From Schmidtea nova (lineage: Eukaryota), in assembly GCA_044892505.1 (NCBI GenBank), contig CM097882.1, forward strand, positions 255,874,001 to 255,938,000: DNA of 64,000 nt, in the 5' to 3' direction. The position numbers were made by a program, and so were the translations under genes. Shown one piece after another: positions 10,307-57,287 of this stretch (the stretch's first letter is position 1; each line of letters begins with the position of its first letter). The notes beneath the pieces are model-generated. The model saw nothing but the letters and a program-made list of their open reading frames with translations, was not told the DNA's origin and did not search any database.

Positions 10307-13300
10307 TATGATGAGAGCAACCAATCAAACAAATACCCACGAGAAAGAGACTGTACCAGAAATAAATCCAACAAACCCGAATCCAACCAACAACGAAGGC
10401 CGAAAAGAGATAATACAAGAAGATGAAGAAGCAGAAAAAGAAACAGAAAAGGAAGTAGAAAAAGAAGGGAACCAAGAAGAGAAAAGGAAACTCGGGAAAA
10501 GAGGAATGATGGTAATTTTGCCAAACAAGCACGTGTTTCGATTCCAATATAACATAAAAGAAGAAGTAGAAATATTGTTCAATAAAGTGAATGAAATGGC
10601 TCCAGGAGTAACGAAACTGCCCAGAGAAGCATTCCTAAAAATAGAAGGTGCACCAGAAGTAAAATTGAAACTAACGGATACATGGGAAAACCTGGGAGTA
10701 GTAGAGACAAAAAGAAATGTGATGGTAATCAAGGAAATAGAACCAGAAGGAATTCCATCGCCAGTGCGTCACGAAACACGAATCAGTCGAATATTTAAAG
10801 GGAAAATGATACGAAGACGGTTGGGAGAAATAGACGAGTTAGAACGAAAAATGAGAAAGGTCGGAGTAGTAGACGACAAGAGTGAATCAACACAAAAAGC
10901 TATTAAAAGTGAAACAAGACCAACGGAAAATACACCAAGTGAAATCAACCAAATAAAACACATTAACATGTTGAGAGGCCAGGCAAAGAAATTCTCAGAT
11001 GACGAAGAGGATAGTGACGTCAGTAGTCTAGCCGGAGATATGCTAAACGAACCGGAAATTGAAGACAAAAAGATAGAAGTAGTAAAGACACCAGAAACTA
11101 TTCAAGTAAAAGAGGACGAGATCCAGAAATTATTAGATAACGCGCTAGAAGTAATATATAATGAGGAATTCATTGACAAGAAACACTATAGAAAATTCAT
11201 GAGAGCAATATTACAAATGAACTATAAAGAGTGGTTACCAGGCCGAGAAGTAGAAACACTAAGCCAGTACGTAGGAAAATTATTAAAAGAACCACTCCAT
11301 GAATATATAATCCTAATAGAGATAAAAACATGTTTGCCAAGGATTTGGATCAAAACTCCACTCACGGAAGATATTTATCAATGGGTAGAAGATAGATTAG
11401 GGAGTTCATATAAAAACAAATTCCTCTATTCACAGAATGGACTAGTGAAGAAAAGGACGCATTTGATAGAAACAGGCATATGGCCAGGAGAGGTGACAAC
11501 ACTATCGATATGCGATGATAAGAGAGAAGAGAACCTACAAGAAGTAGCAAAGGAAGCAAATATGTGTTTCGAGAAGAAGATAAAACCACGGTTAGAATAT
11601 GAGAAAGGACGAATCTTACGAGGAAATCTAAATTCCATGATAGAACAAATCATCCCACAAATCAAAAAACATAGAAAGGAGTTAATGAGAAGCGAATACG
11701 AAAAGTTGAAACGATGTATCGAATGCATACGTGACACAAGTCACACGAGATGGTCACAGATCTCATACGGAAAAGTAATTGCAAAAATGGGAAAAGCAAT
11801 GTTCAGACAAGGGAAAATAACAGATCTGAAAATTGCAGTAGAGTTACCTAATGAGGATACCAAAGAAATTGAAGTGGTAGCAGATTGTACCATAAAAGAA
11901 TTAGTAAATGTCATCAACGAGACACTATTACAAAGAGAACCAGAAGAAGAATGGGAAGATGACATAATCATGAAATACAACGAACATGTATTATGGGATC
12001 ACGATGAAAGACGGCTATATAAAATTGGTATATGGGATAATCACCAAACCATCCACGTTATCAGAATGGACGATACACCAAGAGAAACTGCTAAGGATGA
12101 GAAAAGAGAACGGGAACGACAAAAAGAAGTTGTGCATAAATTACAACAAATAGTAGACATTTATCGAAATTGGCGGATTTGGCCAGAATGGGAAGATGTA
12201 TTAGAAGAACTCAATCTCAACAGACGATTACGAACACCTGTAGAAAAACAATGGAACGAACGAGGAAAATGTTGGGAACCAAAAGCAGGCGAATACGAAG
12301 AGGAATACGGAATAGGCATAGAAGACGATCACAAACCGGAAACCGGAAGAGTCTGTATGGTAACAAGAAAAGCCATGCCAGCAGATTTAGACGGACCAGA
12401 AACGACAACCATGTGGTTGGAAAGAGAAAAACAAAAAACGGAAGAATTTGTCGAAATATTAAAAACCAATGCGCACGGCAAGAGAAAAGTAGTAAAAGGT
12501 CTCGCAGATTTTTTCGTAGTTAATGGAGAAGACATAACATGCTTGCGTAAAGTAGCAAAAGCAATCGCCGAATACAAAAGAGTTAACGAGTGGTGTCCAG
12601 AACAATTGGATCACGTAATTAAAAAATGGAGAAACCAAGAATTCTCGCAGGAATCGCCACAGAAAGTACACCTAAGAATAGTATATCCGAACCAAGAAAA
12701 GGAAGAGTTTTGGGTAGGGATAGCGGAGAAAGTTCGAGACATTAAAAAGAAATTGAGATATGAACCACCATTCCATTTACAACACCAAGGACGATCATTA
12801 GATAACAGCTTAGAAATTGGAATAACGCCAGCGCAATTAGATATCGCAAATACATTGACAGTAGCAGCAATAGCAGGTCAACCATTGAAATTGAAAGAGG
12901 AAAAGAAACCAAAAGGAAGTATGAGTACGCCGAGCCCAATGAAATCGGTAATGACTCCAGGAACAAGCTCAGAACAAGCTAGAACAACACCAAGAGAGAC
13001 AAGAGAAAGAACACCACCAGAACCATACGATGTAGACGAAATTTTTACAGATAGCGATGATATGTTAGAGGAGTTAATAGAGCTAACAAAAGAGAAAGAT
13101 GATAATATTTTCGAAAGAATTCAAGAATTACCAACAGCAATACCGGTAACCAACACCGAAGATGAAGTCGAACAAGAAATAATCATAGAAGAAGTAAATG
13201 AAATAGCAGAAGAGGAAGCAAGGAGGGCAAATGTAGAAAACGTACAATTCACACAAGAAATGGAAAGATGGTTAGAAGAAAGAGCCAATGAACCAAGAGA

Positions 13301-16300
13301 CGTCACAGAAGAAACTGGACGAGAAACAAGATTAGTAGAAACGGGCACGACAATGGATAAACGACCTAGAGGTAGACCCAAGATGGATCCAGCAAATGTA
13401 GTTATAAAATCAAGAGAGGAAAAAAGACGGGATCAATGGGATTTGTGTCTAAAGAAACTAAATAAAATAGCCGTAACGAAAGAAAAAGAAACAACACAAA
13501 CATACCAAGGCGAGGAATGGATATCAAAGATGTTAATGGAAATACTGGCAATAATCGATCCGGAATTAAAGAAATGGTGGAGAATAAATGAAATAAGCGA
13601 AAGGGCGAAATCACTGCATAGCGCCATCGCACCAATCCTACCAGAACTAATAAAAGAGAAGACAAGGTCAAATCACCTAGATTGGCAAGGAACCACGATG
13701 TTGATAAAGAAGTTAACGGAAGGAGCAGAGACGGATAACAAATATTTAATAGCTATGGCATACACCATCTACAATCTGCTGACACTGAGTAGAGGTCGAC
13801 TGAAACCCACAGCACTTGAAAGACATATAAAGAATACAGCCAAAATTATAGAGAAAGAAATAGAACCGTACATCATCAGTAAAGGAGGATGGGAAACATT
13901 CACAAAAACGAACCAAAAGAAAAACCAAGCCAAAAATATGAAAAAGAAATTCGAAGAGATATTGGGAGAATTGGAAAAGGAAAAGTCGGGAACAGGAAAC
14001 GGGAAATCATCACTAAACCTGAGTTCTATCATTATGATGATGTTAATATGGATGATTAGTACTGACGGAGCAACAGCATTTGAAGTATTCGATTGTGATC
14101 AAATGGCATTAGGTGAGAAATATTCACTACGAGGGACAGAACAATGTAAGGACGCAACCCCAACGGAGCTAAAAACATTAAAAAAGAGACAATTATACCA
14201 CGTATATCAGGAAGCTGAACTGATAAGAACAATGGTCAGAGAATGCAAAGTTTATAAAACCAGATTTGCTTTTTATTGTGGGCACCGCCATTATTCAGCA
14301 ATCGTGATGCCAGGAACGGAAAGAGAATCGGTAATGCTGCAAGGAGAAGACTGTGAAAAATTATTTAAACATGGAGAAGTAGAGACTAGAGATAGAGTAA
14401 AGATAAGAGGAAAAACGGGAGTGATATTGCAACAAACATATTATGTAGCAGGAGCTATTACGGGAGGAGAAGGGTACTGCCAAGGAGCAACATATCCAAT
14501 ATTCGGAGTAGCAGCAACAAACCTAGTGGTAATAGATACGTTTACAGTGGAACTAAAAACGTACGAGGCATTCTTCGATCCAACGACGGGAGAAATGAAA
14601 ACTCTACCTATGTGCAAAATCGAGTCAAACACTTGTCAGACTGGTATGTCAACCCTAACCTACCAGATACGAGGAAAGGAATGTCAACTACAACTGTTAA
14701 AGGAAGCAGAATTCGATGAGATACAAGGGAAAACCTTCCAAGAGGAAGAAGAAGACGAGGCAGCAAGAGGAAAAATACTTCAAGACACAGTACGGGGAGA
14801 GAAAAAGATTGAAACCCGAACACAAGAAAAACAAATTAAAATGAGAAATACACCAACGGTACTAATTACCTCAGATGCAGATATCGGAATGAGGTTTGTA
14901 AAAGGAAAAACAGCCTTGAAATGCGGAGTAGCCATGTTGGAAACCAACTACCCCGGCATTTTTGTATCAAAACAAGAAGTACCTAGTGCGAAACGCAAAG
15001 TACACACGAACGATGTTAAATTACACCTTTACATGAACAATAAAATGGATTTTCTATTCCATAGAGGACAAGCGTCACTACAAAAAGTGTATTACGATTT
15101 AATAAACAACGATTGCATATTAAATAGGGAAATATTAAAGACAAAATTAGCAGTAGCAATCACAAACCCGGATAGTGCAATGCCATTATTACCATTAAGA
15201 GAAGGTCATTTTGGAAGAGTAGTCGGAGAGGTCATGTACGTATACATATGTAAAAAGACAAATGCGAAGGTAGCGACAATGACAAAACTACAACCAGGTC
15301 AGTGTACTAACGAACTAGAAATCGAATATAAAGGGAAAGTAAGATATGTACAACCAGTGACAAGAATCATAAATCCAATAAGCTTCGAACCAAATCCTTT
15401 CAATTGCAGCAACGCATATGGACCACTATACCAAAAACCAGACGGAAATTGGGTTATGTTTCCGTCAAGAACAGAGGTACCAGCACCAAGGGAATTTGAA
15501 TTGATGCAACTATCAAAAGGACGAAAATTTAAAGACGTAGACGTAAGCAATATGGGATTCTATAGCGCAAAGGATTTAGAAGCAGCAAGACAAAACATAC
15601 TATTTCCGGCAAGACGAGAAGCGGTGTTATCCAGTATTGTAACAATAACAGGAGGAACAAATTACCAAGGTGGACCAAATTACGAATTATTATTGTCACC
15701 AGCCCACTTTAAGAAGGCAACGGAAAACATGATGAAAGCGATGTGGGGAAGATTTTTAATATTTGGACAAATGATGGCAGGAATACTTGGTGTTATACTA
15801 ATTATACAAATAATACGGGTAATAATAACGCAAATGTTAGCCTGTTTTGACATCTATAAAAGAGAAAAGAAAGTAAATTGGAAATTGGTGGTAGGATTCT
15901 TACCATTTCTGGCTAAAACAATGGTATTACACGGTCATTCGAAAGATATTCACCGAATAAAGAGACTCCTAAAAATACTGGCAAAAATGAAAGGAACCGA
16001 TGAAGAGGTGGGACGAAAATTTAAAAAGATAATGAATAACGAGCAAGCAAGACAACAACTAAAGAAAGAGAGAAAAGGACTATGGGAAAGAATGAAAGGG
16101 TACAGAACCCAAGACGATTCCAGTGACGACGATGATGATGATAACGAAGGAGGTCAAGTATTTAAAAATCAAGTACCACAGTATGTCGAAAAGAATCCAG
16201 CGGAAATGTGGAAGTGTTACGCACCCCCACCAACTATGTACCAAGAACCAACACCAGGGATGAGACAAAATACAATGCAAATGATGCCGATGACAAACAT

Positions 16301-19300
16301 ATATCCTATGATACCAGAAGACTATAGAACGAGACGGTGCAGAAGCGTAGATCCGCAAGGAGACTCACATACAATTGCAGTAATGTCATCAAACACCGGT
16401 CCAGTATTAACTACAACAATCGAAATTAACGGAAGGGAAATTGAAGCGATGATTGATACAGGAGCAAATATCTCAGCAATAGATATAAAATGGATACCAC
16501 AAGAACAAAGACGGGATATTGAGAGAACCAACGTTCACGTAATAGCATGCAGTAAAGAAGTAGTAGAAGTTTCCGGAAGATGGCGGGTAAAGATAAAACA
16601 TCAAAACACGGAAATCGAAACGTACGTAGCAGTAATACCAGCACTGAGCGTACCATGCATTATAGGTACGGATCTGATGCCAGCATTATTTAAAGAAATA
16701 GTTATTGACCTCGGAACAATGAGATTAAAGGATAGGACAGGACAGATATGCGCAATAGAAGCAAAAGTAACAAGTTCGAAACAAATAATCGTACCAGCAC
16801 GGAGAGAGAAAATATGTTTCGTAAAAATAGATCCTACAATAGAAGGTGACATAATCTTTGAACCCAGTAAAAGATTTGAAAAGAGAAAGTCGTTGCCAAT
16901 GGCAAGGGGATTAGTGAGTGCGAATGACAACGGAGAAATCCCAATAAATGTAGTAAATTTCGATGAAGAGGATAAAATAATTTATGAAAATGAAAGATTA
17001 GGTAAACTAACTCCAATGATAGATATCGAAATACCAATAAAAGAAGGAGTAAAAGAGGAGGAACCCACTTGGAACATTGATAGCCAACTATTAAATGAGG
17101 ACCAAAAGAAACAGCTAGAAAGATTACTGATGGAATATAAAGACATATTCGCAACATCCGATTTAGATTTAGGGACATGCGACGTCACACTACATACGAT
17201 TCCACTAACAGACGAAACGCCGATTGCGTTAAGACCATACAAGTTAGCTGAAGCGCAAAAATCAGTAGCAGAAGCAGAGGTACAGAAAATGCTAGACGCA
17301 GAAGTAATTGAACCAAGCTGCTCACCGTGGCAATTCCCAGTTGTAATGGTGAAAAAGAAAGACGGAACACAACGATTTTGTATTGATTATCGGAGATTAA
17401 ATGCAGTTACAAAAAGGGATACATACCCATTACCAGACATCAACGAGATGTTATTGACATTACAAGGAGCGGCATACTTTACATCATTAGATTTGAAAAG
17501 CGGATACTGGCAAATTAAAATGAAGGAGGAAGACAAAGAGAAAACTGCTTTCACTATCGGAAGAGACTTGTACCAATTTAGGAAAATGCCATTCGGACTA
17601 ACCAATGCGCCAGCATCATTTCAAAGATGTATGAATTTCGTTACCCACGGCATAAAACAATGCATGGTTTACATTGATGACCTACTAATCTACTCAAGCA
17701 CATTTGAACAACACATCCAAGATATCAGAGATGTATTTGTGAGATTGAGACAATGGAAACTTAAGCTCAAACCATCGAAATGCGATTGGGCAAAAGAGAA
17801 AGTGACATTCTTAGGACATATTGTGTCCGCAAAAGGAAAGGAACCAGATCCCAGAAACATTGATAAAGTAAAAGAATGTCCAGTACCAAAGACGATAACG
17901 CAGATCCAAGAATTTCTCGGATTATGCGGTTACTATAGAAAATTCATAAAGGATTACGCAGGAATTGCAAAACCAATCCAGGAGCTAGTAAAGAAAGACG
18001 TATCGTTCATATGGGGAAGCGAACAACAAACAGCCTTCGAAACATTACGAGATAAGTTAATAACTGCACCAATATTGGTTCACCCGGATTTCAAGAAGCC
18101 ATTTTTACTCGCAACCGACGCAAGTGGATATGCAGCAGGAGCAGTGTTAGGACAATATGATGACGAGGGAAAAGAGCGGGTAATCGGATATTATAGCAGA
18201 ACATTCAAGAAACACGAGAAGAATTATTCAGTAACGGAAAGAGAAGCATTGGCGATAATATTAGCAATAAAACACTTTAAATATCTACTATGGGGACACG
18301 TTATATGCATAACCACGGATCATCAACCACTTGTATGGCTAGGACAACACAAGGAAACATCCAGCAGGTTGATGAGATGGGCGATGCAATTACAAGAATA
18401 TTCACCAGATATAAAATTCAAATCAGGAAAAGCGAATGCCAACGCAGATTGTATGTCAAGATTAACGTTTCCAGAACTAACAGACCCAGAAGTGCAAAGA
18501 ATATGCATAGTGATAGCAGAGGACTTGGATTTCAGTGAGTTAAAGAAAGATCAGCAAGAGGATAAAGAACTAAAACCCATCATAGAATTTCTAAGCTCAC
18601 GAAATATGGATGTATTCGAAGACAATGCGGAGTTAAAAGAACACATGAGGAAATACCAACACCGATACACAATAGAAAAAGGATGGTTGTTAATACAAGA
18701 TGGAGAAAAACGATTAATGTGTCTGCCAAGTAATAGACGAAAAGAGATAATAACTCAATACCATGACGGAAAGCTAGGAGGACACATGTCCTCTAAGAAA
18801 ACATTAGATCGTATGAGACAGAAATATTATTGGCCAACAATGGACGAAGACGTAAAGGAATGGATAAAGAACTGTTTAACTTGTGCCACAAGAAAGGATA
18901 GTGGGAAGAAATGGAAAAATCCCTTAAAACCCATGCCAATACCAGCGGAACCAATGACTACCATTGCGATGGATGTAATAGGACCATTGCCAGAAAGTTT
19001 AAACGGGAATCAATATATATTGGTAATAACGGATTATTTGACTAAATTCCCTGAAGCATTTGCGATGCCGGATCAAAAAGCAAAGACCGTAGCAAGAATT
19101 TTAGTAGAGGAAATATGTTGTCGATACGGAACCCCGAAACAAATACTAACAGATCAAGGAACAAATTTTATGAGCGAAATACTAGATGAAGTAACAAATT
19201 ACTTCAGAATAGCTAAATTACGAACGTCACCATATCATCCGCAAACCAATGGACAAACGGAAAGATTTAACGGCACATTGATTCGAATGTTATCCAATTA

Positions 19301-22300
19301 TGTAAGCAAACACCAAACAGATTGGGATGAATACGTAAAGCTATGTCTAATGGCATACAGAATGTCGATACACGCAGCAACAAAATTGAGTCCATTTCAA
19401 TTAATGTATGGAAGGGAATGCAATATGCCAATAGATCTTGAATATCAACCACCTTTGTCTCAATATATGGAGGAAGATGATTACGTCACCAAATTCAAAG
19501 AACGAATGCAAGAGATATGGAAGACAGCTGAACTGAACATAAAGTTTTACCAAGAAAGTTACAAGGACCTACACGATCAAAAGAAAAATGTTAAAACAAA
19601 TGATCTTAAACCAGGAGATTGGGTAATGATAGAAACCCCAGAAATAATACCAGGAACCGTTAAAAAACTACAAAGACCAGGAAAAGGCCCTTACGAAGTT
19701 ATATACAAAAAGGAAAACAATGTGAAGGTAAAACTTGTTAATCGACCATTGATACGACCAATATACGTTAATACATGCAGATGTAAAAAAGTACCAAAGA
19801 CAATAACCACAGCGCCAGAAGAACGAATAATAACCAGATCCCAGACAGCCAGAATGAATATGCTCAGAGCAACCAATGAAAGTACCGAAGCAGAGAACAA
19901 TCAACGAGAAAAAAGAAACAAGGAAATTGTACTAAAAGCCAGAGAAATAATGGGAAAATGGCATGTCAGAGACGATATATTAAGAGATATTCAGTCGATA
20001 ATTAGTGATTACGCAAGGGGACTACCAACAAAACCAGTCATTTCAGAACTACTGGAAAAGATTCCAGAAATACTTTCACTAGAAGACATAGGAGGACAAC
20101 CAGCATTACATAACGCCATAAAATGGGGAGAGGTAGAGAGAGTAAAAGAATTTCTAAAAATCGCTAAGGAAACAAACCAACACCTTGGTTTTGGGAATAA
20201 CGAACAAGAAACACCCTTAATGGTAGCAGCCATCTACAAATCGGATAAAGCAATAATAGACCTTTTGATAAATGCCGATTTCAACTGGACGGAACGCGAT
20301 AGAGAAAACAAAACGGTCTTGAATCACGCAATATGGAGCTCAAATCAGATAATGCTCAAACAAATAATCGAGAAGGCCACTTGGGAAATAGACGAACTGA
20401 TCAAAGGTGATATAATCAAGGAGGCAATAAAAATCGGTAACTGCAAAACAATACGCAAGCTAATAAAATGGAAAAGATCCGAAAATGATACATGGGTATT
20501 AAATATAAACGAAGTATACAGTAAAGGACAAAACGCGTTATTTCAATTCCTATTAAAATTAGTTTGTGATCAGAAAACACTGTTAATATTATTGGACAGA
20601 AGAAAGATCACAATTTCCAAAAACAAAGAGGAGTGTAAATTCGAAAGCGAAAAAGAAGCATTATTCAGGAAAATTAGGGAATGGTGTGCAAAATCGCTAA
20701 CCAAGTCGATAACTTACAAAGATATATCCAATTTTCAAGATAAGTACAAAACGGTGGAGGAAGAGTATGACAAACTAGTAGACATATTAAACCACCCCGA
20801 AAAATGCAAACAATTCCTAGGTCGAAAGGAAAGAGAAAGCAAAAGGAAATTTACACCACTTTTCAGCGCAGAGGTACCATATCAAGAAAGGTTAGATGCG
20901 ATACAGGACAAAGCAAAAGAACTATTACCAGAATTCGAGAATTCTAAACATACACTGGAGATACTCGGATCAATTGTGGAAAAGGTACACGCATATGCGG
21001 AAGGAACTTACAATGAAAACGATATGATGATCATAAAAAGAGAAATGCCAGTGACTTTCTTATTAACAAAGAATGGAGTATTGCCAATACATAGAGCCTT
21101 ACGAGCAGGAAAAGATAGGAGGGTAGTCGAAATTGCACGGTTGATGCAAGATTGCGGAAGTGACATGAACATGAAAGATAAAAAGGGAGATACCCTCATG
21201 ATATTCGCAGCAAGAGCGAACACAAAAACCCGAGTGTTACAGGAACTGTACGAAGCAGGTGCAGGACTCATGGGAAGAACTAACAAAGACAGCTCAATAC
21301 TAGACGTAGCGTTGTTAGCGCACAATTGGGAGGTGATAAATTTCATAAAAACAATCACAAATCAGGAGGAAATAGAATACCTTACAAGGACAGTTAAAAA
21401 AGCTAGCGTACATTCCATGATGCATAACGCTGAACTAACTGAAGCAATACTCAATTGGATGAACCCAAACACCAATGAACCAGCATTCAGGATCAACGAG
21501 TGCATGGAACAAGGCCAAAATTTGTATATAAAGTGTGCATTAATAATAAACAAATGGCCAAAGATAATAGATATCTTCATGAGAAGAAAAGATTTACGAT
21601 TCACAAACAACCCAAAGGAAACAGAACGTACGGACAAATGGAAAGAACTAATGAAAACGTACCTTAATAATTGGATAAAAGCCAAGAAAGAGATTCTAGA
21701 TTGTAAATTAACCGATAAGGAAATACCTAAGCAGGCAGTAACACAAGAATACGAAGCAAGTATACTCACAACCATAACGTATGAAAAAATGATAGAAGCA
21801 GTTAATGTCGAGGACGACATTTTCAACGACCAAAGGGGAGGTGACAATACAGGAAACGACGACGATAGTACTCGAGAAAATCCAGAGGATCATGAGTTAT
21901 CAGATAAAGAGGACAGTGAAGAGAAAGGAAGGGACACAGAGAAAAATGATAAGAACAATGAATTTGGGAAACAAAGAAACAACAACTATAAAAATAAAAA
22001 CGAAGTAAAAAGAACAGGCTACAAACAAACAATAAACCCATTCTTTAAACCAGAACTATTATTACTAACGGTAATCATGACCTTAATTAGTCCAACTCAA
22101 GGAATGATATGTGAAGAAAAAGCGACAATACAAATTGGAAACGCAAAAGGAATCGAACGAGTATGTTGGTCAAAAAAGGACAAAATATCGGGACAAAATA
22201 GTCCAATGGATTGCAGGATCTCAGAATATGAACAAGAAATCATAGAGATCGATGACTTAGAGCTAGATACTTGGTACAGAATGTGCACCGTTCGGAAACC

Positions 22301-23996
22301 AAAGGATCCGAGATCACATAAGACAATTGCATGTGCAAATTACCTAACACCCAAAGTAACCATAACAGTACAGCAGTCATCCAAAGGAGACTATGTCGTA
22401 GGAAAGTGTGGAAGAACAGAGACACAAGGAACAAAAAACAAGAAACCTCAGACAATAGACAGACGAACAACGCCAACTATACAAATTACCATAGACAGGC
22501 CCGAAGTAAGAGTAACCACAAATGAAACTGAAAGAGTGACCTACCAAGCAGAATTACTATGTTTAGCACTCATATTAACAATGTTAAAACGGTTAGAAGA
22601 AGGGATAGACATTGACACAATGGCAGTAACAGAGATGAACGACACCCAAAACACCAACCCAAAGTGTTGGGCCAGAAGCAACGAAGAAATTGGCGTAAGC
22701 GAAATAAAGACGAGTCGGAAAAGGAAAACAAATAAAGTAACCAAGATATCAGAAGTAAAAGCAGACAGGACGTATGAACTATGTTTACTAGAAAAAGAAA
22801 GACACAAGAAAGGAACGACAATTTGTAAAACATTTCAACCTGGGGAAACAATAAAGTTCATACGACGAGGAAGAAGAAATAAACGCACCAAACGGAGAAC
22901 AACTATAATGTTAGAGTTAACCGGAATAGAACCGGACGTCAAAGGCGTATGCTGGAAGAAGCAGGAAAAGAAAACAAACCAGAATACACCGCCGCAATGT
23001 CGAACAAACAGAGGAACAACCACAATACAGATAGAAGGGTTAGAAAGTAATCAAACGTACGAAATATGCCTGATCAGGAAGAGCGACAAAATAACAGTAA
23101 ATGAACTGGAATGCAAAATATATAAAACACCCACCAGAACAAGAATTGGAAAGACAACGCGAAAAAGCAGAAGACAACGGAACAAAGGAAAAACGAGGTA
23201 TACCACTACTTTTAAACCTAATGGACAACAGAAAAACCAAGAAATACAAATAAAAACCGAAAAGAATACTACAGCAACTCTTATACTATGGAGAATAGAC
23301 AATAAAACGTTAGAAATATGTTGGGTAATAGTTCAGAAACAAAGGGAAAGACAGCCACGAGACTGTGGAAACGTGAAAGGAAAAGAGGAAATAAGTATCA
23401 GAAATCTGAAATTCAATAGCGAATACGAGATATGTGCGGTAGAAAAGACGGACATATTAGGAAATCAGCAGGAAAGATGCGAAACGTACTACACACCGGT
23501 AAACTCAACGTCCAAAGGGAAAGTGAGAAAACTCGAATTTAAAGAATTAAGTCAGACAACGAAACAAATGGACGCGGAACAAGTAGTAATAGACCCTTAC
23601 GCAAGATGGACGCCGGAAGAAGTAATTAAAGAAGTTAAAAGAAAACAACAAGAACGAGAACAACTACTAAATAAACTAAAGGGACAATACGGACCAATGA
23701 TTAACCAGAGTGAAATTACGAAGATGGACGTAAACAAACAAGTTAGAGAACTAATTGGTCTGGGAATACTAGCAGCAACTATTCCAGTAATAACAGTATT
23801 ATTAATAATATGGATATATGATGTATTCAACAAGAAACCAATAACACATTGGCCAGATATAAAGATTATGAACTACAGTATAGAATTACCGGAAGAAGTA
23901 CAGAAAGAATTTCAAAGGAGGACGAAAGGCAAAGAATTTTGGAGACAAATAGAAGATGAAGAGCGATACGAAGGAAAGACAGTGATGGTGATATAG
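10227..23996 (+). CDS. pol: 4589-aa polyprotein: Ubl domains, AT-hook, Bcl-2-like, Env, PR, dUTPase-like spacer, RT, RNase H, IN, ankyrin repeats, FN3 membrane protein
   Basis: Uninterrupted ORF with PR IDTGA (16455), RT LKSGYWQI and YIDD (17670), RH DASG, IN HHCC plus D-D-E (MDVIG, TDQGTNF, PQTNGQTER) and GPY. Extra domains are listed separately. Confidence 0.97.
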   Translation: MLRNGQEYKEKRNKKQQERERQPLRINMMRATNQTNTHEKETVPEINPTNPNPTNNEGRKEIIQEDEEAEKETEKEVEKEGNQEEKRKLGKRGMMVILPNKHVFRFQYNIKEEVEILFNKVNEMAPGVTKLPREAFLKIEGAPEVKLKLTDTWENLGVVETKRNVMVIKEIEPEGIPSPVRHETRISRIFKGKMIRRRLGEIDELERKMRKVGVVDDKSESTQKAIKSETRPTENTPSEINQIKHINMLRGQAKKFSDDEEDSDVSSLAGDMLNEPEIEDKKIEVVKTPETIQVKEDEIQKLLDNALEVIYNEEFIDKKHYRKFMRAILQMNYKEWLPGREVETLSQYVGKLLKEPLHEYIILIEIKTCLPRIWIKTPLTEDIYQWVEDRLGSSYKNKFLYSQNGLVKKRTHLIETGIWPGEVTTLSICDDKREENLQEVAKEANMCFEKKIKPRLEYEKGRILRGNLNSMIEQIIPQIKKHRKELMRSEYEKLKRCIECIRDTSHTRWSQISYGKVIAKMGKAMFRQGKITDLKIAVELPNEDTKEIEVVADCTIKELVNVINETLLQREPEEEWEDDIIMKYNEHVLWDHDERRLYKIGIWDNHQTIHVIRMDDTPRETAKDEKRERERQKEVVHKLQQIVDIYRNWRIWPEWEDVLEELNLNRRLRTPVEKQWNERGKCWEPKAGEYEEEYGIGIEDDHKPETGRVCMVTRKAMPADLDGPETTTMWLEREKQKTEEFVEILKTNAHGKRKVVKGLADFFVVNGEDITCLRKVAKAIAEYKRVNEWCPEQLDHVIKKWRNQEFSQESPQKVHLRIVYPNQEKEEFWVGIAEKVRDIKKKLRYEPPFHLQHQGRSLDNSLEIGITPAQLDIANTLTVAAIAGQPLKLKEEKKPKGSMSTPSPMKSVMTPGTSSEQARTTPRETRERTPPEPYDVDEIFTDSDDMLEELIELTKEKDDNIFERIQELPTAIPVTNTEDEVEQEIIIEEVNEIAEEEARRANVENVQFTQEMERWLEERANEPRDVTEETGRETRLVETGTTMDKRPRGRPKMDPANVVIKSREEKRRDQWDLCLKKLNKIAVTKEKETTQTYQGEEWISKMLMEILAIIDPELKKWWRINEISERAKSLHSAIAPILPELIKEKTRSNHLDWQGTTMLIKKLTEGAETDNKYLIAMAYTIYNLLTLSRGRLKPTALERHIKNTAKIIEKEIEPYIISKGGWETFTKTNQKKNQAKNMKKKFEEILGELEKEKSGTGNGKSSLNLSSIIMMMLIWMISTDGATAFEVFDCDQMALGEKYSLRGTEQCKDATPTELKTLKKRQLYHVYQEAELIRTMVRECKVYKTRFAFYCGHRHYSAIVMPGTERESVMLQGEDCEKLFKHGEVETRDRVKIRGKTGVILQQTYYVAGAITGGEGYCQGATYPIFGVAATNLVVIDTFTVELKTYEAFFDPTTGEMKTLPMCKIESNTCQTGMSTLTYQIRGKECQLQLLKEAEFDEIQGKTFQEEEEDEAARGKILQDTVRGEKKIETRTQEKQIKMRNTPTVLITSDADIGMRFVKGKTALKCGVAMLETNYPGIFVSKQEVPSAKRKVHTNDVKLHLYMNNKMDFLFHRGQASLQKVYYDLINNDCILNREILKTKLAVAITNPDSAMPLLPLREGHFGRVVGEVMYVYICKKTNAKVATMTKLQPGQCTNELEIEYKGKVRYVQPVTRIINPISFEPNPFNCSNAYGPLYQKPDGNWVMFPSRTEVPAPREFELMQLSKGRKFKDVDVSNMGFYSAKDLEAARQNILFPARREAVLSSIVTITGGTNYQGGPNYELLLSPAHFKKATENMMKAMWGRFLIFGQMMAGILGVILIIQIIRVIITQMLACFDIYKREKKVNWKLVVGFLPFLAKTMVLHGHSKDIHRIKRLLKILAKMKGTDEEVGRKFKKIMNNEQARQQLKKERKGLWERMKGYRTQDDSSDDDDDDNEGGQVFKNQVPQYVEKNPAEMWKCYAPPPTMYQEPTPGMRQNTMQMMPMTNIYPMIPEDYRTRRCRSVDPQGDSHTIAVMSSNTGPVLTTTIEINGREIEAMIDTGANISAIDIKWIPQEQRRDIERTNVHVIACSKEVVEVSGRWRVKIKHQNTEIETYVAVIPALSVPCIIGTDLMPALFKEIVIDLGTMRLKDRTGQICAIEAKVTSSKQIIVPARREKICFVKIDPTIEGDIIFEPSKRFEKRKSLPMARGLVSANDNGEIPINVVNFDEEDKIIYENERLGKLTPMIDIEIPIKEGVKEEEPTWNIDSQLLNEDQKKQLERLLMEYKDIFATSDLDLGTCDVTLHTIPLTDETPIALRPYKLAEAQKSVAEAEVQKMLDAEVIEPSCSPWQFPVVMVKKKDGTQRFCIDYRRLNAVTKRDTYPLPDINEMLLTLQGAAYFTSLDLKSGYWQIKMKEEDKEKTAFTIGRDLYQFRKMPFGLTNAPASFQRCMNFVTHGIKQCMVYIDDLLIYSSTFEQHIQDIRDVFVRLRQWKLKLKPSKCDWAKEKVTFLGHIVSAKGKEPDPRNIDKVKECPVPKTITQIQEFLGLCGYYRKFIKDYAGIAKPIQELVKKDVSFIWGSEQQTAFETLRDKLITAPILVHPDFKKPFLLATDASGYAAGAVLGQYDDEGKERVIGYYSRTFKKHEKNYSVTEREALAIILAIKHFKYLLWGHVICITTDHQPLVWLGQHKETSSRLMRWAMQLQEYSPDIKFKSGKANANADCMSRLTFPELTDPEVQRICIVIAEDLDFSELKKDQQEDKELKPIIEFLSSRNMDVFEDNAELKEHMRKYQHRYTIEKGWLLIQDGEKRLMCLPSNRRKEIITQYHDGKLGGHMSSKKTLDRMRQKYYWPTMDEDVKEWIKNCLTCATRKDSGKKWKNPLKPMPIPAEPMTTIAMDVIGPLPESLNGNQYILVITDYLTKFPEAFAMPDQKAKTVARILVEEICCRYGTPKQILTDQGTNFMSEILDEVTNYFRIAKLRTSPYHPQTNGQTERFNGTLIRMLSNYVSKHQTDWDEYVKLCLMAYRMSIHAATKLSPFQLMYGRECNMPIDLEYQPPLSQYMEEDDYVTKFKERMQEIWKTAELNIKFYQESYKDLHDQKKNVKTNDLKPGDWVMIETPEIIPGTVKKLQRPGKGPYEVIYKKENNVKVKLVNRPLIRPIYVNTCRCKKVPKTITTAPEERIITRSQTARMNMLRATNESTEAENNQREKRNKEIVLKAREIMGKWHVRDDILRDIQSIISDYARGLPTKPVISELLEKIPEILSLEDIGGQPALHNAIKWGEVERVKEFLKIAKETNQHLGFGNNEQETPLMVAAIYKSDKAIIDLLINADFNWTERDRENKTVLNHAIWSSNQIMLKQIIEKATWEIDELIKGDIIKEAIKIGNCKTIRKLIKWKRSENDTWVLNINEVYSKGQNALFQFLLKLVCDQKTLLILLDRRKITISKNKEECKFESEKEALFRKIREWCAKSLTKSITYKDISNFQDKYKTVEEEYDKLVDILNHPEKCKQFLGRKERESKRKFTPLFSAEVPYQERLDAIQDKAKELLPEFENSKHTLEILGSIVEKVHAYAEGTYNENDMMIIKREMPVTFLLTKNGVLPIHRALRAGKDRRVVEIARLMQDCGSDMNMKDKKGDTLMIFAARANTKTRVLQELYEAGAGLMGRTNKDSSILDVALLAHNWEVINFIKTITNQEEIEYLTRTVKKASVHSMMHNAELTEAILNWMNPNTNEPAFRINECMEQGQNLYIKCALIINKWPKIIDIFMRRKDLRFTNNPKETERTDKWKELMKTYLNNWIKAKKEILDCKLTDKEIPKQAVTQEYEASILTTITYEKMIEAVNVEDDIFNDQRGGDNTGNDDDSTRENPEDHELSDKEDSEEKGRDTEKNDKNNEFGKQRNNNYKNKNEVKRTGYKQTINPFFKPELLLLTVIMTLISPTQGMICEEKATIQIGNAKGIERVCWSKKDKISGQNSPMDCRISEYEQEIIEIDDLELDTWYRMCTVRKPKDPRSHKTIACANYLTPKVTITVQQSSKGDYVVGKCGRTETQGTKNKKPQTIDRRTTPTIQITIDRPEVRVTTNETERVTYQAELLCLALILTMLKRLEEGIDIDTMAVTEMNDTQNTNPKCWARSNEEIGVSEIKTSRKRKTNKVTKISEVKADRTYELCLLEKERHKKGTTICKTFQPGETIKFIRRGRRNKRTKRRTTIMLELTGIEPDVKGVCWKKQEKKTNQNTPPQCRTNRGTTTIQIEGLESNQTYEICLIRKSDKITVNELECKIYKTPTRTRIGKTTRKSRRQRNKGKTRYTTTFKPNGQQKNQEIQIKTEKNTTATLILWRIDNKTLEICWVIVQKQRERQPRDCGNVKGKEEISIRNLKFNSEYEICAVEKTDILGNQQERCETYYTPVNSTSKGKVRKLEFKELSQTTKQMDAEQVVIDPYARWTPEEVIKEVKRKQQEREQLLNKLKGQYGPMINQSEITKMDVNKQVRELIGLGILAATIPVITVLLIIWIYDVFNKKPITHWPDIKIMNYSIELPEEVQKEFQRRTKGKEFWRQIEDEERYEGKTVMVI
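11823..12065 (+). other. Ubiquitin-like domain in the polyprotein (clearest of up to four; others near 10503-10740, 11300-11510, 12663-12870)
   Basis: LKIAVELPNEDTKEIEVVADCTIKELVNVI...IIMKYNEHVL..D.RRLYKIGI..QTIHVI follows the ubiquitin beta-grasp pattern. Confidence 0.65.
13420..13910 (+). other. Bcl-2-like helical domain in the polyprotein
   Basis: BH2-type motif EPYIISKGGWETF (13869-13901) ending an all-helical region of about 150 aa. BH1 NWGR is degenerate. Confidence 0.65.
14010..15930 (+). other. env: Envelope glycoprotein, chuvirus-like / class III fusion type, embedded in the polyprotein
   Basis: Internal signal peptide SIIMMMLIWMISTDGATA|FEVFDC, then YSL..EQC, CKV...FYCG and a Cys-rich ectodomain. 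C-terminal WGRFLIFGQMMAGILGVILIIQIIRVII TM. Confidence 0.8.
20090..21360 (+). other. Two ankyrin-repeat clusters after integrase (~20090-20500 and ~21060-21360)
   Basis: GQPALHNAIKWG, ETPLMVAA, KTVLNHAI, GVLPIHRAL, GDTLMIFAA, SSILDVAL. Confidence 0.85.
22040..23996 (+). other. Type I membrane protein module: signal peptide, four FN3-like repeats, TM, short tail
   Basis: LLLLTVIMTLISPTQG signal. Repeats IDDLELDTWYRMC, VKADRTYELCL, IEGLESNQTYEICL, IRNLKFNSEYEICAV. TM LIGLGILAATIPVITVLLIIWIY. Confidence 0.7.
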
Positions 23997-24121
23997 GAGG
24001 CGGGATATGACTGTAAATAATAGTGTAAATAACAATGCATTACCGTAATAGTATGGGTATCGATATTATAAAAATATAAAAAGAGAAATCGAGAAAACGA
24101 TTAATGTATATAATTTAGAAA

Positions 24122-24478
24122 ATGAACGAACAGGAAGAAATAGCAGAAACTACTATGGCTATGCGATGGAAAGCCCAGTGTGACATGTTAATACGAACAA
24201 TCAACTCACTACAAAATCAGTTAATTGAGAAACAGAATTTGTTATCCGAAAGTTATAATAATAGTTTTGAACAACTCCACAGAATCGAGGAGCAACAGAG
24301 ATTGATAACGCAACTTACCAGAGAGAATCAAGTGATGAGCGACATAAATCAGAGACAAGCAATAGAGATAGACCGTTTAACAATGGGAGAGACAGAAGAA
24401 GCAGAGGATGGATGGACAAATTGGGCAATAAACAGATCAGAAAACGACCCAGAACCAGATTCAACAAACGAGCCGTAG
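24122..24478 (+). CDS. Accessory coiled-coil protein (118 aa)
   Basis: ATG ORF with the element's A-rich codon style, heptad pattern and an upstream TAG acceptor. Confidence 0.7.
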   Translation: MNEQEEIAETTMAMRWKAQCDMLIRTINSLQNQLIEKQNLLSESYNNSFEQLHRIEEQQRLITQLTRENQVMSDINQRQAIEIDRLTMGETEEAEDGWTNWAINRSENDPEPDSTNEP

Positions 24479-24568
24479 ATAAATAAAGCGAAAAATTGTA
24501 AATATGTAAAACAAAAACAAGAAAAATCAAAAAATAGATAACAAATCAAGTGTATATATCATTGTAGA

Positions 24569-25951
24569 ATGAATACAGAAGGAAAAGCCGAAGAGCGGAT
24601 AATCGAAATTTTGAGAGCCGAGAACAGGAAATGGAGTCTGAGACTCACTTGTGTAAATTGTAAAAACATAATATTGAAACCAAGACAAACCCTATGCGGA
24701 TGCAGAGTATGTACCAAATGCATACACGAGTTAAGTATGAAAAGACCACCAGAATGTCCAGAATGCAAAGAAGGTCAAATAAAATTCGAAGAAACCGGAC
24801 CAGATAGAGCAACTCAGAGAGAAATCATGAACACGAAAACCGAATGTATAAATCAACCATGTATATGGCAAGGACAAATACGCGATCTCGAGAACCATCT
24901 GGAGAACTGCGAAGAGAAGAGAACTGAATGTAACAAATGCCAACAAAAAATAACTATAAAGAATAAAGAGCAGCACAAAGATGAATGTAAAGAAGAGGAA
25001 AGTCTATGCGAATATTGTGGAACTCGAGAAACGAGGAGAAAGATCGAAGAAGAACACCTGAATATAAAAGAGGAGAAAGTATGTAGACAATATGTAGGAA
25101 TATGTTCAAACGAATGCGAGATAACGGTAGAAGTAAAATTACAAGAACATTGGAAAGTGTGCACGGAGAAACCAAGGGAATGTCCTTATAACAAACAGGG
25201 ATGTATGGAGAAAAGAACGCAAAAAACCATGAAACAACATCTGGAGGAAGCATTACTAAAGCATGCGGAAATGACAAACGAAGCAACAAAAGAAACCGAA
25301 CAAACAATCAAAAAATTAGAAAGAGAAATAGAGTCACACAAGATAATGGTAAACCTACTGTTGGAAACCAGAGAGCAATTCGAACTAACACGAGAAAAGA
25401 TGGAGGAAAAGATAAAAGCTATCGAAGAACTGGCTAAAGGAATGAAAATCCAGTACAACAAACTCACCCAGGATACCGAGGAAAAGTTACCAATCGCACC
25501 ATATGTGTGGAAAGTGACAGATTTTAGAAACAAATTAACAGAGGCCAGAAATATGACGAAAACAGCAGTAATAAGCCCACCATTTTATTTATGGAGAAAC
25601 GGAGCTAAAGTGAGATTGAAGCTATACCCAAATGGAGACGGAAGAGGACGAGGAACACATGTGTCAATATTTTTCTCGCTATGTAAAGGAGAATACGACG
25701 ACCTAGTAGAATGGCCCTTGAAAGTAGGAGTCATCATTAGAATCAGAAGTGTAACAAAACCAGTAGAAAAATTCTTTGAGACAGAGAAACATGCGAGTAC
25801 GAGCGAGAAACCAACCACAGAATGTGGATTAGCAGCGGGAGAACCAATGTTTATAACGAAAGAAAGCCTATGGGAACGATTATATGCAGACACCCTATAC
25901 ATAGAAATGGAAAGGAATGAGAAAGCGGATAGAAAAGAATGGTTGACGTAA
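24569..25951 (+). CDS. TRAF-family protein (RING, TRAF zinc fingers, coiled coil, MATH domain), 460 aa
   Basis: RING CVNC...PRQTLCGCRVCTKC...CPEC; zinc fingers; MATH YVWKVTDF...ISPPFY...KLYPNGDGRGRGTHVSIFF...GEYDDLVEWP. Confidence 0.93.
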   Translation: MNTEGKAEERIIEILRAENRKWSLRLTCVNCKNIILKPRQTLCGCRVCTKCIHELSMKRPPECPECKEGQIKFEETGPDRATQREIMNTKTECINQPCIWQGQIRDLENHLENCEEKRTECNKCQQKITIKNKEQHKDECKEEESLCEYCGTRETRRKIEEEHLNIKEEKVCRQYVGICSNECEITVEVKLQEHWKVCTEKPRECPYNKQGCMEKRTQKTMKQHLEEALLKHAEMTNEATKETEQTIKKLEREIESHKIMVNLLLETREQFELTREKMEEKIKAIEELAKGMKIQYNKLTQDTEEKLPIAPYVWKVTDFRNKLTEARNMTKTAVISPPFYLWRNGAKVRLKLYPNGDGRGRGTHVSIFFSLCKGEYDDLVEWPLKVGVIIRIRSVTKPVEKFFETEKHASTSEKPTTECGLAAGEPMFITKESLWERLYADTLYIEMERNEKADRKEWLT

Positions 25952-26066
25952 CAAGAGAAGTGATCGTGTAAATAATATGTACAGTTAAATACCCAAAAAT
26001 TATTATATAAACAAAAAATAACTGATATATAAACCGATTAAAAAATTTTTTTTTGAAATTATAGCA

Positions 26067-27128
26067 ATGGGAAATATCGAAGTATGCTTACAGGAAATTA
26101 CGATGCATCAAGCAGAAGCGATTAGCGATCATCTAGAACAGATTGAAATATGGGTCAATGCATATTATGGAAAGCAAGAGGAGATAGAGAGACAAGCCGA
26201 ATTATTAAAAGAAGCGGAAAGATCAAGTCAAAGAAGTCGAGAAAAAATAGAAGAAGTATACAAAATGCTACAACAACAAAAGGAATATTACCAGAGAATG
26301 ATGAAAGAGCGACGAGAGGAAAGAGACAGACAGCAGATGGAAGCTGAACACAAGATGTATTCGATTACAGAACAAGCAAGATACTGGAAGAAAGAAGCGA
26401 AAGAATCTTACGAAAAAGCTAGAGAAATAATAGAAAGGACAGCTTATAGTGATGATTGGAAGTTATATAAAGAGATCGATGAACTAAAAGACGAGTTAGA
26501 GCAAAAAATCAACCAGGAAGTGTTAAATAAAAGATGGAATACAAAAAGACAGCAATTTATCCGCGAACAAGCAAAGAAAATTAAAGGACTAACCTATCAA
26601 GTTCAAAGAATGGGAGAAGAACTAGCTAATCAAGAACAACTGAAAACTATGCTCACCGGAATATGGAATCAGAAAGAAGAAGAGATGAAGAGAGATATAA
26701 ATGGTTATCAAGGGGTGATTACTCAAAAGAAAATAGAGCTAAAAAGAACCAGAGAAAGGTTAAAGGAAGCGAAGCAAAGTTATGAGGAAAATTTAACGAA
26801 TTTGATGAAAGAAAACGAAGAATTGAAACAGAAACGAGTAACAGTACTAGCAATACCCAAAGAAACAAGTACAACGGCAGCCGTAACAAAAATGATGAAA
26901 GAAGACGAACAAAAGACAAAAGTAATCGAATTAGAGAAGCAAATAGAAACATTAACAGAACAAGCAAATTACCTAGAATATTTGCTGGACGAGGAGATCC
27001 AGATATCTCACATGTATCGAGATGAAGTCGAAATGTGGAGGAGCAGGGTTGTTTGGATACCACTCCCCACGAACCAGGTAGAACCTCAGGACGAAGGTTT
27101 CTACGAACCAAACGAGACGATTGTGTAA
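26067..27128 (+). CDS. Accessory long coiled-coil protein (353 aa)
   Basis: E/K/Q-rich helical ORF with an upstream TAG acceptor. Confidence 0.8.
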   Translation: MGNIEVCLQEITMHQAEAISDHLEQIEIWVNAYYGKQEEIERQAELLKEAERSSQRSREKIEEVYKMLQQQKEYYQRMMKERREERDRQQMEAEHKMYSITEQARYWKKEAKESYEKAREIIERTAYSDDWKLYKEIDELKDELEQKINQEVLNKRWNTKRQQFIREQAKKIKGLTYQVQRMGEELANQEQLKTMLTGIWNQKEEEMKRDINGYQGVITQKKIELKRTRERLKEAKQSYEENLTNLMKENEELKQKRVTVLAIPKETSTTAAVTKMMKEDEQKTKVIELEKQIETLTEQANYLEYLLDEEIQISHMYRDEVEMWRSRVVWIPLPTNQVEPQDEGFYEPNETIV

Positions 27129-27210
27129 ATAAAGCGGAAAATATATTTTTGTAAATAATTGTATGAAATGTAGTATCAAATTGTATTGACCTACCTGTAA
27201 AGAAAACAGT

Positions 27211-27783
27211 ATGAAAAAGCTCAGAATACCGATATTCCTATACCTAATAACAATCACCCTACAAAGAGAAGATCTTCAACTCACAGAGAAGGAGCTACGA
27301 GCCCTACCCGAGAAAACCTATCAAGAACTAGATAAACTAATCAGCGAAGCAACACAAGAAATCACCCAACTTCAACAGATAACATCAGACAACCCAAACG
27401 ATGAAAAATTTCAACAGGTCCTATATGAACATCGAATCAAATTGAAAACAATCAGAAAAACCCTAAAGGAAGGTCGAGAACCCATAAAAAGCTTAGCCCA
27501 AGCAGAGATAGAATATCAAGAAAAATGGATCATCGCAATTATAATAATCCTTGCACTCAGCGTGACCATTATCGCGATCACAATCCTCATAACATCATAC
27601 CGAGTGAAGATCTTAAAACAAAAACATGTCATCCTGAATCGAACAACAATACAAGACATCAGAACCCAAAAGCGAATGAGAAAACACCTAAACCAAATCC
27701 AAAGCCACTACGAACTACGAACAATCAGCGAAAGAACCCCAATCCAATCCAATACCAATCATGAAATCAAAGAGCTTGTGTAA
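27211..27783 (+). CDS. Accessory membrane protein (190 aa; hydrophobic N-terminus, helical hairpin, TM)
   Basis: N-terminal LRIPIFLYLITITL; TM WIIAIIIILALSVTIIAITILITSY followed by a basic tail. Confidence 0.75.
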   Translation: MKKLRIPIFLYLITITLQREDLQLTEKELRALPEKTYQELDKLISEATQEITQLQQITSDNPNDEKFQQVLYEHRIKLKTIRKTLKEGREPIKSLAQAEIEYQEKWIIAIIIILALSVTIIAITILITSYRVKILKQKHVILNRTTIQDIRTQKRMRKHLNQIQSHYELRTISERTPIQSNTNHEIKELV

Positions 27784-55030: not shown

Positions 55031-57287
55031 AGATAAAACCATATTTTTAATCGTGGAATTATAGTAAATTTGCAGGTAATATAATATAATAATATTGTTT
55101 CGGCTGATGTGTGCATCATTAGTTTTATATGCGTCTGTGTGCGCATTGTCTGTTGGACAGTTTCATGACTGTGTGCGCGTTGATATTTTTGTTTATTATG
55201 TCTCGCGTCCGTGTGCGCGATTTGTGACAATTAAGTCCTTAGGTATTTGTATCGCGTCCATGTGCGCATGTATATATTTGTTGCCTTATTGTCATCAGTG
55301 TGCGTTTTTGTGGTAAATTGATTTTGTTGGATTTTCAATTCGGGATTGAGAAAAAAATCGTGGAGTTTAAAATTTGGTTGTTTTATCGAGTCTTGGGTTT
55401 TAGGTAATTTTCAAATTTTGATTAGTGGGAAGGAGTGATTTTTTTGGCAATTGAAATTTTGACAGATTTTTTAATTTGGATATATATTCAAATTCTGCTG
55501 TGATTGATTCGAATTTTTTCGAATGACTTCAAGCTTGATCTTATTACATATTAATCATGTTGGCAACGTTCTCACACAAGAAGACTCTAATTCGATAGTT
55601 GAGATTCAAACTGAAGACGATGCTTTGGAAACGAAAGAGTGTATTTCTATAGATTGGAAATAATATTATGTCCCCAAGAGATATCAATCCTACTTTTCAA
55701 TTTAAGAAAGTTTATTGTGATTCAAGGTCAATTTTAAAATCGAGAAATCAAACATCTGATGTACGTCAACAATCCAATGCTTCTTTTGATGATTACAAGT
55801 TAAAAAGTGATATCTCCGACAGTATATTTGCTGAGACAATAAAGAATTTCATTGATGCTTCTTTTGATCGTTACAAAAATGCAGTATGTTGGCTGATGAA
55901 ATAAAAGGTTTATTAAAAATGGTCTTGGCTCGATTCAAATATAATAATATAATAATTGATTTAGTTTATTTGTAATAATATTTCCACTTTACGTATTTAA
56001 ACGCATTTCAATGTACATTAAAACAAACGAAGTTACAAAAGAGTTACTTATATATAGCTCCCCGGAAAAAGTGCGGAGCATGTGGAAATCATTGTCTGAA
56101 ACGAACACACTTTTTATTTACAGGTGTGTATAGATTTGCGACAATTTTGAGGAGATATAGAAAAAAAAGAAAAAAAAGGTTTATTGTAGATTTTTTATAA
56201 GTGTTTTTAGGTTATTTTTTGGTGCGTATCAACCGTGCGTATCAATTCAATTGTCCTATAGTTCTTTCACGTATCCAATATGCGAAAGATGTCTTTTTGG
56301 ATCTTGTATTTGATGAAGGTTTGTCATGTTGGCTGTTTTTTAGAATCCAATTTTTGTTTGATTGTTTGTTCTTTAAGTCTTGAGTTTCAATTGATGTGGT
56401 TGGTTTGTATGTTTGTTCGGTGTTGTTCGGTATTGTTGTATTTGTCTCAAAATCATTCGTTTGATTTTGATTTTGGATGTTGTGTTGGTGAATGTAGCCG
56501 TCATTTAGACTTGTACTAAAATATTGATTACCACGAAATCGTTGTTTCTTTCTATGCCGTGTTCGACTTTATGGTCTTGTGAATTTGTTAGTTCGATGAA
56601 ACCTAATGCTGGTTTTAATCGACTTAAGTTTATTGTCTGATTTTGTGCATGATTATCAATGATCTTTAAAAGTTTGTGTGGGCCTATGTATTTCGGTTTT
56701 AAACCAGAATCAGATGTTGTTCTGATCCAAACTTGAGTTGCTTTTACAAAGCTTCTTGGAATATAAGGTTTGTATGTGGTACTTGTTGTGAATTGAGGGT
56801 CTGAGTTGATAGTGAGAAAGTGTGCTCTTGCTGTCTCGAGTTCCTCTAAAGTTAGACTGTTTCCAAAATCTATGATCTCGGAAGGTAATGAAGTTTGTGT
56901 TACAAGTAGAAGTTGAGAAGGAGTTGATCCTGTAGTTGTAGATAGAGTGTTTCTCCATCCCATTAAAATGAAAGATAATGACTTGGTCAAACCTTTTGAG
57001 ATAGAAAGTATTCTCAGAGAGGTTTTCAAAGTCCTGTGAAATCATTCTAATAGACCATTTGTCTGTGGGTGGTATGCTGTAGAGATTAAATGTTTGATTA
57101 CTAATCTTTCAGTGAGATGCTTGAAGATTTGGGATTCAAATTGTGCTCCGCGATTTGTTATGATGTTCCTAGGAACGCCGTAAAGTGAAATCCAATCTTG
57201 GACGAATTTGGTTGCTTCATTTTTGGCTGTAATTGTTTTTAATGCGATTGCTTCGAACCAGCGTGTTTTCTGCCAATCATAGTCAGT

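Follow-up and report, generated by a model that had tools for sequence, protein, structure and literature searches.

A complete TRAF with an all-cysteine RING in a Burro-type element of a planarian genome, likely taken from a host TRAF clade

The Burro-type Ty3/Gypsy element in the window, by which we mean the whole stretch of 64,000 nucleotides of Schmidtea nova DNA that was analysed, carries a complete TRAF gene whose RING ligands are all cysteines. A preliminary description of this DNA had read the histidine-to-cysteine change as a sign that the element had made an altered E3 or a dominant-negative protein. As the same cysteine is found in host, Dendrocoelum and echinoderm TRAFs, that reading falls, and on the sequences compared the all-cysteine RING is the normal state of an expanded planarian TRAF clade, the flagged change being an ordinary one. 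The broader proposal that a host-derived TRAF is carried and maintained by the element stands, given its position in the tree, purifying selection and the fixed CGC motif. On balance we favour the view that this TRAF of a Burro-type element, conserved across five subfamilies, was taken once from the host clade and serves as an adaptor in the TRAF signalling of the host, by which the element-producing cell would be kept alive.

The TRAF is the second of four short ORFs that lie 3' of the polyprotein, and the element is laid out as follows.

3005-31232, + strand: LTR element of 28,228 bp (28.2 kb), from its LTR pair and Pfam domain order
3005..6249, + strand: 5' LTR of 3245 bp, TG...CA, with ORFs of 158 and 194 aa inside (LTR comparison)
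6256..6273, + strand: primer-binding-site-like stretch (sequence), with a putative likeness to tRNA-Pro
6578..7039, + strand: 153-aa ORF with an IAP-type C3HC4 RING at its end (XIAP RING, E 2e-10)
9032..10306, + strand: gag, 424 aa, with CCHC knuckles (Pfam)
10227..23996, + strand: polyprotein of 4589 aa with mononegavirus-type fusion glycoprotein, protease, RT, RNase H, integrase and ankyrin repeats (Pfam)
24122..24478, + strand: 118-aa accessory ORF preceding the TRAF, under purifying selection (subfamily comparison)
24479..24568, + strand: 90-nt spacer before the TRAF ATG with AATAAA, two TGTA[ACT]ATA and a TGTAG acceptor-like end (sequence)
24569..25951, + strand: TRAF accessory ORF of 460 aa, ATG to TAA in a single frame (Pfam, PDB and fold matches)
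24650..24766, + strand: RING with all-cysteine ligand set, C28-C66 (alignment to solved TRAF RINGs)
24845..25264, + strand: five TRAF-type zinc fingers, aa 93-232 (Cys/His spacing, zf-TRAF match, ligands conserved in the alignment)
25253..25477, + strand: long helix, a predicted coiled coil, aa 229-303 (AlphaFold2 model)
25502..25909, + strand: MATH/TRAF-C domain, aa 312-447 (Pfam, PDB, Foldseek)
26067..27128, + strand: 353-aa accessory ORF following the TRAF, without Pfam match, under purifying selection (subfamily comparison)
27211..27783, + strand: 190-aa accessory ORF with a hydrophobic stretch, without Pfam match (Pfam scan)
27988..31232, + strand: 3' LTR, 100% identical to the 5' LTR, with 4-bp target duplication GCTG (LTR comparison)

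As the LTRs are identical and the element is bounded by a 4-bp target duplication, the window's copy is a very recent insertion. The fusion glycoprotein (PF24664, E 2e-67, polyprotein aa 1537-1878) lies in frame ahead of the protease (aa 2063), a Bcl-2-like stretch in the polyprotein gives weak matches (Pfam E 0.12, Bcl-xL E 1.4), and no BIR domain was found in the nine element ORFs scanned with Pfam. Elements named Burro or GYPSM1 reportedly go back to Jurka 2007 and Grohme 2018. They are described as giant Gypsy elements of planarians with MATH_TRAF_C, BIR, BCL2-like and ankyrin domains and an in-frame env (PMC6431247), and the element in the window has in common with them the giant LTR organisation, a fusion glycoprotein in frame before PR-RT-RH-IN, ankyrin, MATH/TRAF-C and apoptosis/ubiquitin extras. 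In the published elements, however, MATH_TRAF_C is part of the polyprotein in Burro1 and of an accessory ORF upstream in Dugesia tigrina, whereas here the full RING-ZnF-coiled coil-MATH TRAF is an ORF of its own downstream of pol. In addition, gag is a separate ORF and BIR was not found, unlike the Burro1 layout in which gag is fused to the polyprotein and BIR is part of the cargo, and the length of the element is slightly under the >30 kb stated for Burro (PMC6431247). Likened to the published Burro1-4 by description, the element is Burro-type and not Burro1 itself.

MATH/TRAF-C cargo in Burro is already published (PMC6431247). A full RING-bearing TRAF ORF in Burro is described neither in section 7 of that paper nor in the excerpts of other papers searched; Grohme 2018 or Jurka 2007 may show it. 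The genome searched (G000) also holds an element of the Burro1 layout (L085, G000:C1:97577000-97586999; L086), with gag and MATH in a single 4706-aa frame, and L085 is 46% identical to the window's element over 1702 aa. In a MATH-only tree (148 columns) the MATH of the L085 polyprotein groups with the element TRAFs and with rows P0034/P0163 (95/88), a grouping that suggests one capture, later cut down.

The complete RING-ZnF-coiled coil-MATH architecture first noted for the ORF holds, as a single frame of 460 codons encodes RING, five zinc fingers, coiled coil and MATH in this order with Pfam, PDB and fold support. The MATH (aa 312-447) matches PF22486 over the cut-off (E 2e-21) and a PDB entry at E 1e-22; the zf-TRAF match (E 7.8e-5) is under the curated cut-off and the Pfam score of the RING is weak (TRAF3_RING, E 0.04), while aa 22-151, comprising the RING and ZF1, align to solved TRAF6, TRAF2 and TRAF5 at E 9e-12 to 8e-10. 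In the AlphaFold2 model (80-row alignment, mean pLDDT 93.7, pTM 0.52) a 75-residue helix at aa 229-303 precedes the MATH, and the nearest folds by Foldseek are the MATH domains of TRAF3/5/2. The protein thus shows the marks of the TRAF family, namely a C-terminal MATH, a coiled coil before it and an N-terminal RING with zinc fingers, and the fourth RING ligand is Cys45 in place of the histidine of the vertebrate form. CGCRVC stands opposite CGHRFC/CGHRYC of the solved TRAF6/2/5, and the alignment bears out the all-cysteine set proposed earlier, with eight ligands at C28, C31, C43, C45, C48, C51, C63 and C66 (C45 codon at 24701-24703). Judging from named planarian and echinoderm TRAFs that also have cysteine there, histidine at this position is not defining for the TRAF family at large.

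Vertebrate TRAF2/3/5/6, the best PDB and fold matches, have a RING, a linker helix with Arg, zinc fingers, coiled coil and MATH as in the element TRAF, but differ in the histidine ligand and in a Phe of the dimer motif, and the Ubc13-facing loop of TRAF6 is not conserved in the element TRAF. The Phe of the TRAF6 motif is Gly77 here and is likewise not Phe in six host TRAFs. Not4/CNOT4 has a C4C4 RING in which eight cysteines hold two zinc ions, and it is an active E3 (PMC4431670, excerpt); being unrelated to TRAF, it shows merely that an all-cysteine set is compatible with activity. As all-cysteine RINGs can be active, the change from histidine to cysteine implies neither loss nor gain.

The gene has taken on the composition of the element, as had been noticed in its A-rich style. 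Fourfold sites of the TRAF are A 0.59 / T 0.07, like the polyprotein (A 0.62 / T 0.10) and unlike six host TRAFs (A 0.30-0.39 / T 0.20-0.41), showing that its synonymous sites carry the A bias of the element. The MATH scores 68 bits against Pfam compared to 137-141 for two host TRAFs; as this domain has drifted from the host family, its ligands may differ.

Two findings could have undone the preliminary description, a TRAF ORF missing from other copies of the element and a CGC private to the window's copy. The ORF is present in other copies, as a protein search of G000 gave 92 scored matches (of 5465 candidates), 80 of them without a stop within the match, and the identical TRAF protein lies at 13 loci, the window's own included. 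A private mutation is ruled out, since all 50 copies examined, the best 30 of the 92 and 20 chosen from lower ranks, read CGC, and a degenerate RING pattern searched genome-wide gave 541 matches with Cys codons and 0 with His codons. An exact 30-mer of the window's subfamily has 70 matches in the genome, and none of the eight cysteines is lost in four other subfamilies, whose identity to it is about 78, 66, 52 and 43%. In all five the TRAF follows pol and the 118-aa ORF and precedes the 353-aa ORF. Leaving out the saturated dS values between distant subfamilies, dN/dS of the TRAF is 0.125 against the 78% subfamily (bootstrap 0.09-0.17) and 0.135 against the 66% subfamily, the neighbouring accessory ORFs are similar, and the RING alone gives about 0.19. 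These comparisons indicate that the element TRAF has long been maintained by selection, and it is almost certain that the gene is functional for the element. At one locus, L092 (G000:C2:167490000-167497000), an internal deletion has fused part of RT to the TRAF MATH in one frame.

The cysteine is shared with the host. A MATH profile search of G000 gave 150 scored matches, and 34 loci outside the element family were scanned for a RING, which was found in 16 and was absent within the fetched flank of 18. All 16 read CGC. The only histidine RING among the host loci examined is that of L058/L108 (G000:C2:134.53 Mb), a TRAF4-like gene with introns that reads CGHHCC. Cysteine is also present in Dendrocoelum lacteum TRAF-2/-4/-5 and in three echinoderm TRAF3-like proteins, and the literature searched, so far as its text was available, holds no description of the CGC state of planarian TRAFs. 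The planarian TRAF2/3/5-like family (D. lacteum TRAF-2/-4/-5, Dugesia japonica TRAF2-like A, L051, L055, L056, L057, L070 and L081) agrees with the element TRAF in domain order and length, has the CGC RING, often in one coding frame, and falls in the same clade; the element TRAF differs in its A-rich synonymous sites, in being only 26-32% identical to that family and in its hundreds of dispersed copies in a mobile element.

The phylogeny with host paralogues, which had been proposed as a check, placed the element TRAF within the planarian CGC clade and gave no support to a histidine-to-cysteine change on the element branch. IQ-TREE on 40 rows unites the five element rows (100/99); P0034/P0072 join them (98/98), and the group nests in a 24-row clade that includes TRAFs of the G000 host and of named planarians (100/99). 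This tree can be explained by two H/C changes, neither on the element branch, and the echinoderm TRAF3-like cysteine is a change separate from the planarian one. The planarian clade is recovered both by FastTree on 74 rows and by IQ-TREE on selections of 38 and 40 rows; the rows omitted from the smaller trees were mostly long-branch or without name, the element rows are compositionally skewed, and the planarian clade is unresolved at its base. That the cysteine originated in the element, there to retune or inactivate the RING, might be argued from the histidine found in most other animal TRAFs (79 of 161 outside relatives; in the others the residue is Cys in 17 and a different one in 14, and no RING was detected in 51). 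As the same cysteine is in host and Dendrocoelum TRAFs, however, and as neither of the two changes that are needed at the least lies on the branch of the element, we give this reading hardly any credence; it would survive only if every CGC TRAF of the host stemmed from the element. We are nearly certain that the cysteine was inherited from the host. A single, ancient capture from the host's own planarian TRAF clade with all-cysteine RINGs is the likely origin of the element TRAF.

A close host donor was not found in G000, the best host match being 32% identical, and a search of G000 with P0034 returned as top matches the element copies and L056 at 31%, again with no close donor. The sister rows P0034/P0072 may themselves be element-borne. 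The lack of introns had been taken as a sign of retro-capture, an argument that does not survive, since the 16 host RINGs represent 14 distinct loci of which 8 run from RING to MATH in a single frame, 5 are two-exon genes and 1 is broken, so that intron lack proves nothing on capture. As non-element TRAFs of the host are also CGC and often single-frame, neither of the two flagged features is an innovation of the element. Capture via RNA would be plausible for an LTR element.

We also considered the host TRAFs as relics in Burro copies, an idea that found no support, as gag and the fusion-protein part of the polyprotein have no match in 180 kb flanking host TRAFs and these flanks hold merely other Gypsy pol fragments (25-42%) plus LTR pieces, namely a single solo LTR (87%) some 4 kb away from a TRAF and short LTR-end fragments. 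About 9 kb upstream of L056 there is one 29% match to the 353-aa ORF, in a layout unlike that of the element. At about 405-455 Mb of G000:C2 host TRAF/MATH genes are densely clustered; some are single-frame, others have two exons, and near-identical copies stand in tandem.

Based on these data we propose that the element TRAF would trimerise by its coiled coil and MATH and dimerise by its RING and linker, alone or with host TRAFs, as TRAF2/3/5 do, and would act as an E3 partner or scaffold, not as a Ubc13 ligase working on its own. The dimer-side residues Q40, R46, D79, R/K84, E85 and I86 are kept in 5/5 subfamilies, whereas the loop that follows C28, on the E2 side, differs between them, a pattern that excerpts of PMC5702613 report for TRAF2/3/5/6. 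R84 aligns with the linker Arg of TRAF6 and TRAF5, which both need for dimer activity and through which a weakly active TRAF can complete an active heterodimer (PMC5702613, excerpt). As the dimer side is kept, the E2-side loop is variable and R105 is found in one subfamily only, an adaptor or E3 partner is favoured over a stand-alone ligase or a pure decoy.

The outcome would be pro-survival, jointly with the IAP-type RING of the element. This direction is suggested by that cargo and by host planarian TRAF knock-down, which leads to more cell death (PMC7586133, in part; see also excerpts of PMC8807557), and we give a pro-survival adaptor role an even chance. In ORF111L of ISKNV a host TRAF has likewise been captured, here independently by a DNA virus of fish; it acts on host death signalling and promotes apoptosis through TRADD and caspase 8 (PMC3352826, excerpt), so a captured TRAF can act in the opposite direction.

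A dominant-negative decoy, which would enter the trimers of host TRAFs or sit on receptor tails and dampen signalling in immunity or cell death, is in our judgement unlikely. T27 and K32 of the element TRAF align with E69 and L74 of TRAF6 at the Ubc13 interface (PMC6874479, excerpt), the loop that holds them differs between subfamilies, and the RING is the least conserved TRAF domain against the 78% subfamily (60% compared to 88% for the MATH), all of which would suit a decoy. Yet TRAF2 and TRAF5 also depart from TRAF6 in the Ubc13 loop, and TRAF5 nevertheless supports heterodimer activity (PMC5702613, excerpt); the cysteine, being the host state, lends the decoy nothing; and the RING and five zinc fingers, which a pure decoy would not need, are kept at dN/dS 0.1-0.2. 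The opposite case, a stand-alone active E3 whose C4C4 RING builds ubiquitin chains on host defence or element proteins, could appeal to the eight ligands and P64 that are invariant in five subfamilies, to the activity of the Not4 C4C4 RING (excerpt of PMC4431670) and to R84 and R105 of the window's subfamily, which match the two ubiquitin-contacting arginines of zebrafish TRAF6 (PMC5702613, in part). R105, the ZF1 Arg, however, is found in the window's subfamily alone, its place being taken by Ser in two of the others and by Ile or Lys in the remaining two, and the variable E2-side loop is made up mostly of polar residues. We regard such an enzyme as quite improbable.

The constant place of the TRAF between the 118-aa and 353-aa ORFs, with like selection on all, and the presence of a fusion glycoprotein would also fit a TRAF that serves the element itself, in particle assembly, trafficking or release, by scaffolding the accessory proteins encoded beside it. 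Related Burro elements, however, keep just the MATH, inside the polyprotein (PMC6431247), and the remaining cargo is apoptosis-related, which leaves this role only a slight chance. The adaptor that we prefer can be extended to a larger scheme, which we offer as a long shot: an early single capture of a whole TRAF by Burro, expressed from an operon via spliced-leader trans-splicing, would form with the IAP-type RING, and perhaps the Bcl-2-like domain, an anti-death module in stem cells, the MATH-only cargo would be its cut-down descendant, and hundreds of copies would add to the planarian TRAF signal. As a complete signalling adaptor under selection is at hand instead of a stray MATH, the idea of Burro as a 'tinkerer with apoptosis and ubiquitination' (PMC6431247) becomes testable with one gene, and planarian TRAF counts and RNAi designs can include the element copies.

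Lying behind a 4589-codon frame, the TRAF ORF needs its own message, and it might be translated from a processed sub-genomic RNA via the acceptor-like site before its ATG. The TGTAG end of this spacer is present in 5/5 subfamilies. There are four 3' spacers of 82-125 nt (23997-24121, 24479-24568, 25952-26066 and 27129-27210), and 4/4 end in a YAG no more than 4 nt ahead of the following ATG (mean in shuffles 0.29, 0 of 2000). The motif TGTA[ACT]ATA, picked after inspection of the spacers, occurs 7 times in their 412 nt compared to twice in ORF sequence of 18,340 nt (mean in shuffles 0.34, 0 of 2000; host flanks 0.18 per kb). It presumably corresponds to a Pumilio element. In the flatworm Macrostomum, operons with spacers of about 100 nt are resolved by trans-splicing (PMC8629364, excerpt), and the resemblance of the 3' ORF spacers to an operon processed by cis- or trans-splicing may be taken as a lead only. 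Contigs of four runs (one study, kind unrecorded) cover the region evenly with no joint at the acceptor-like sites and are uninformative on expression.

Other parts of the element were noted in passing. The 153-aa ORF (6578-7039) has a RING without a BIR, behind a 100-residue N-terminal part without domain assignment, and the leader between it and gag holds a tandem array of 30-31-nt units at 7514-7696. The LTR ORFs at 4345-4821 and 5138-5722, repeated at 29328-29804 and 30121-30705, have no Pfam match; in a solo LTR at L105 both of their proteins are 87-88% identical. The C-terminal part of the polyprotein, at about 21900-23996, likewise without Pfam match, has repeated Cys/Trp/Tyr modules and a hydrophobic stretch near its end and resembles a membrane protein ectodomain. 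On the - strand of the window, at 56874-60764, lies an unrelated degraded Gypsy pol with 26-34% identity to that of the element.
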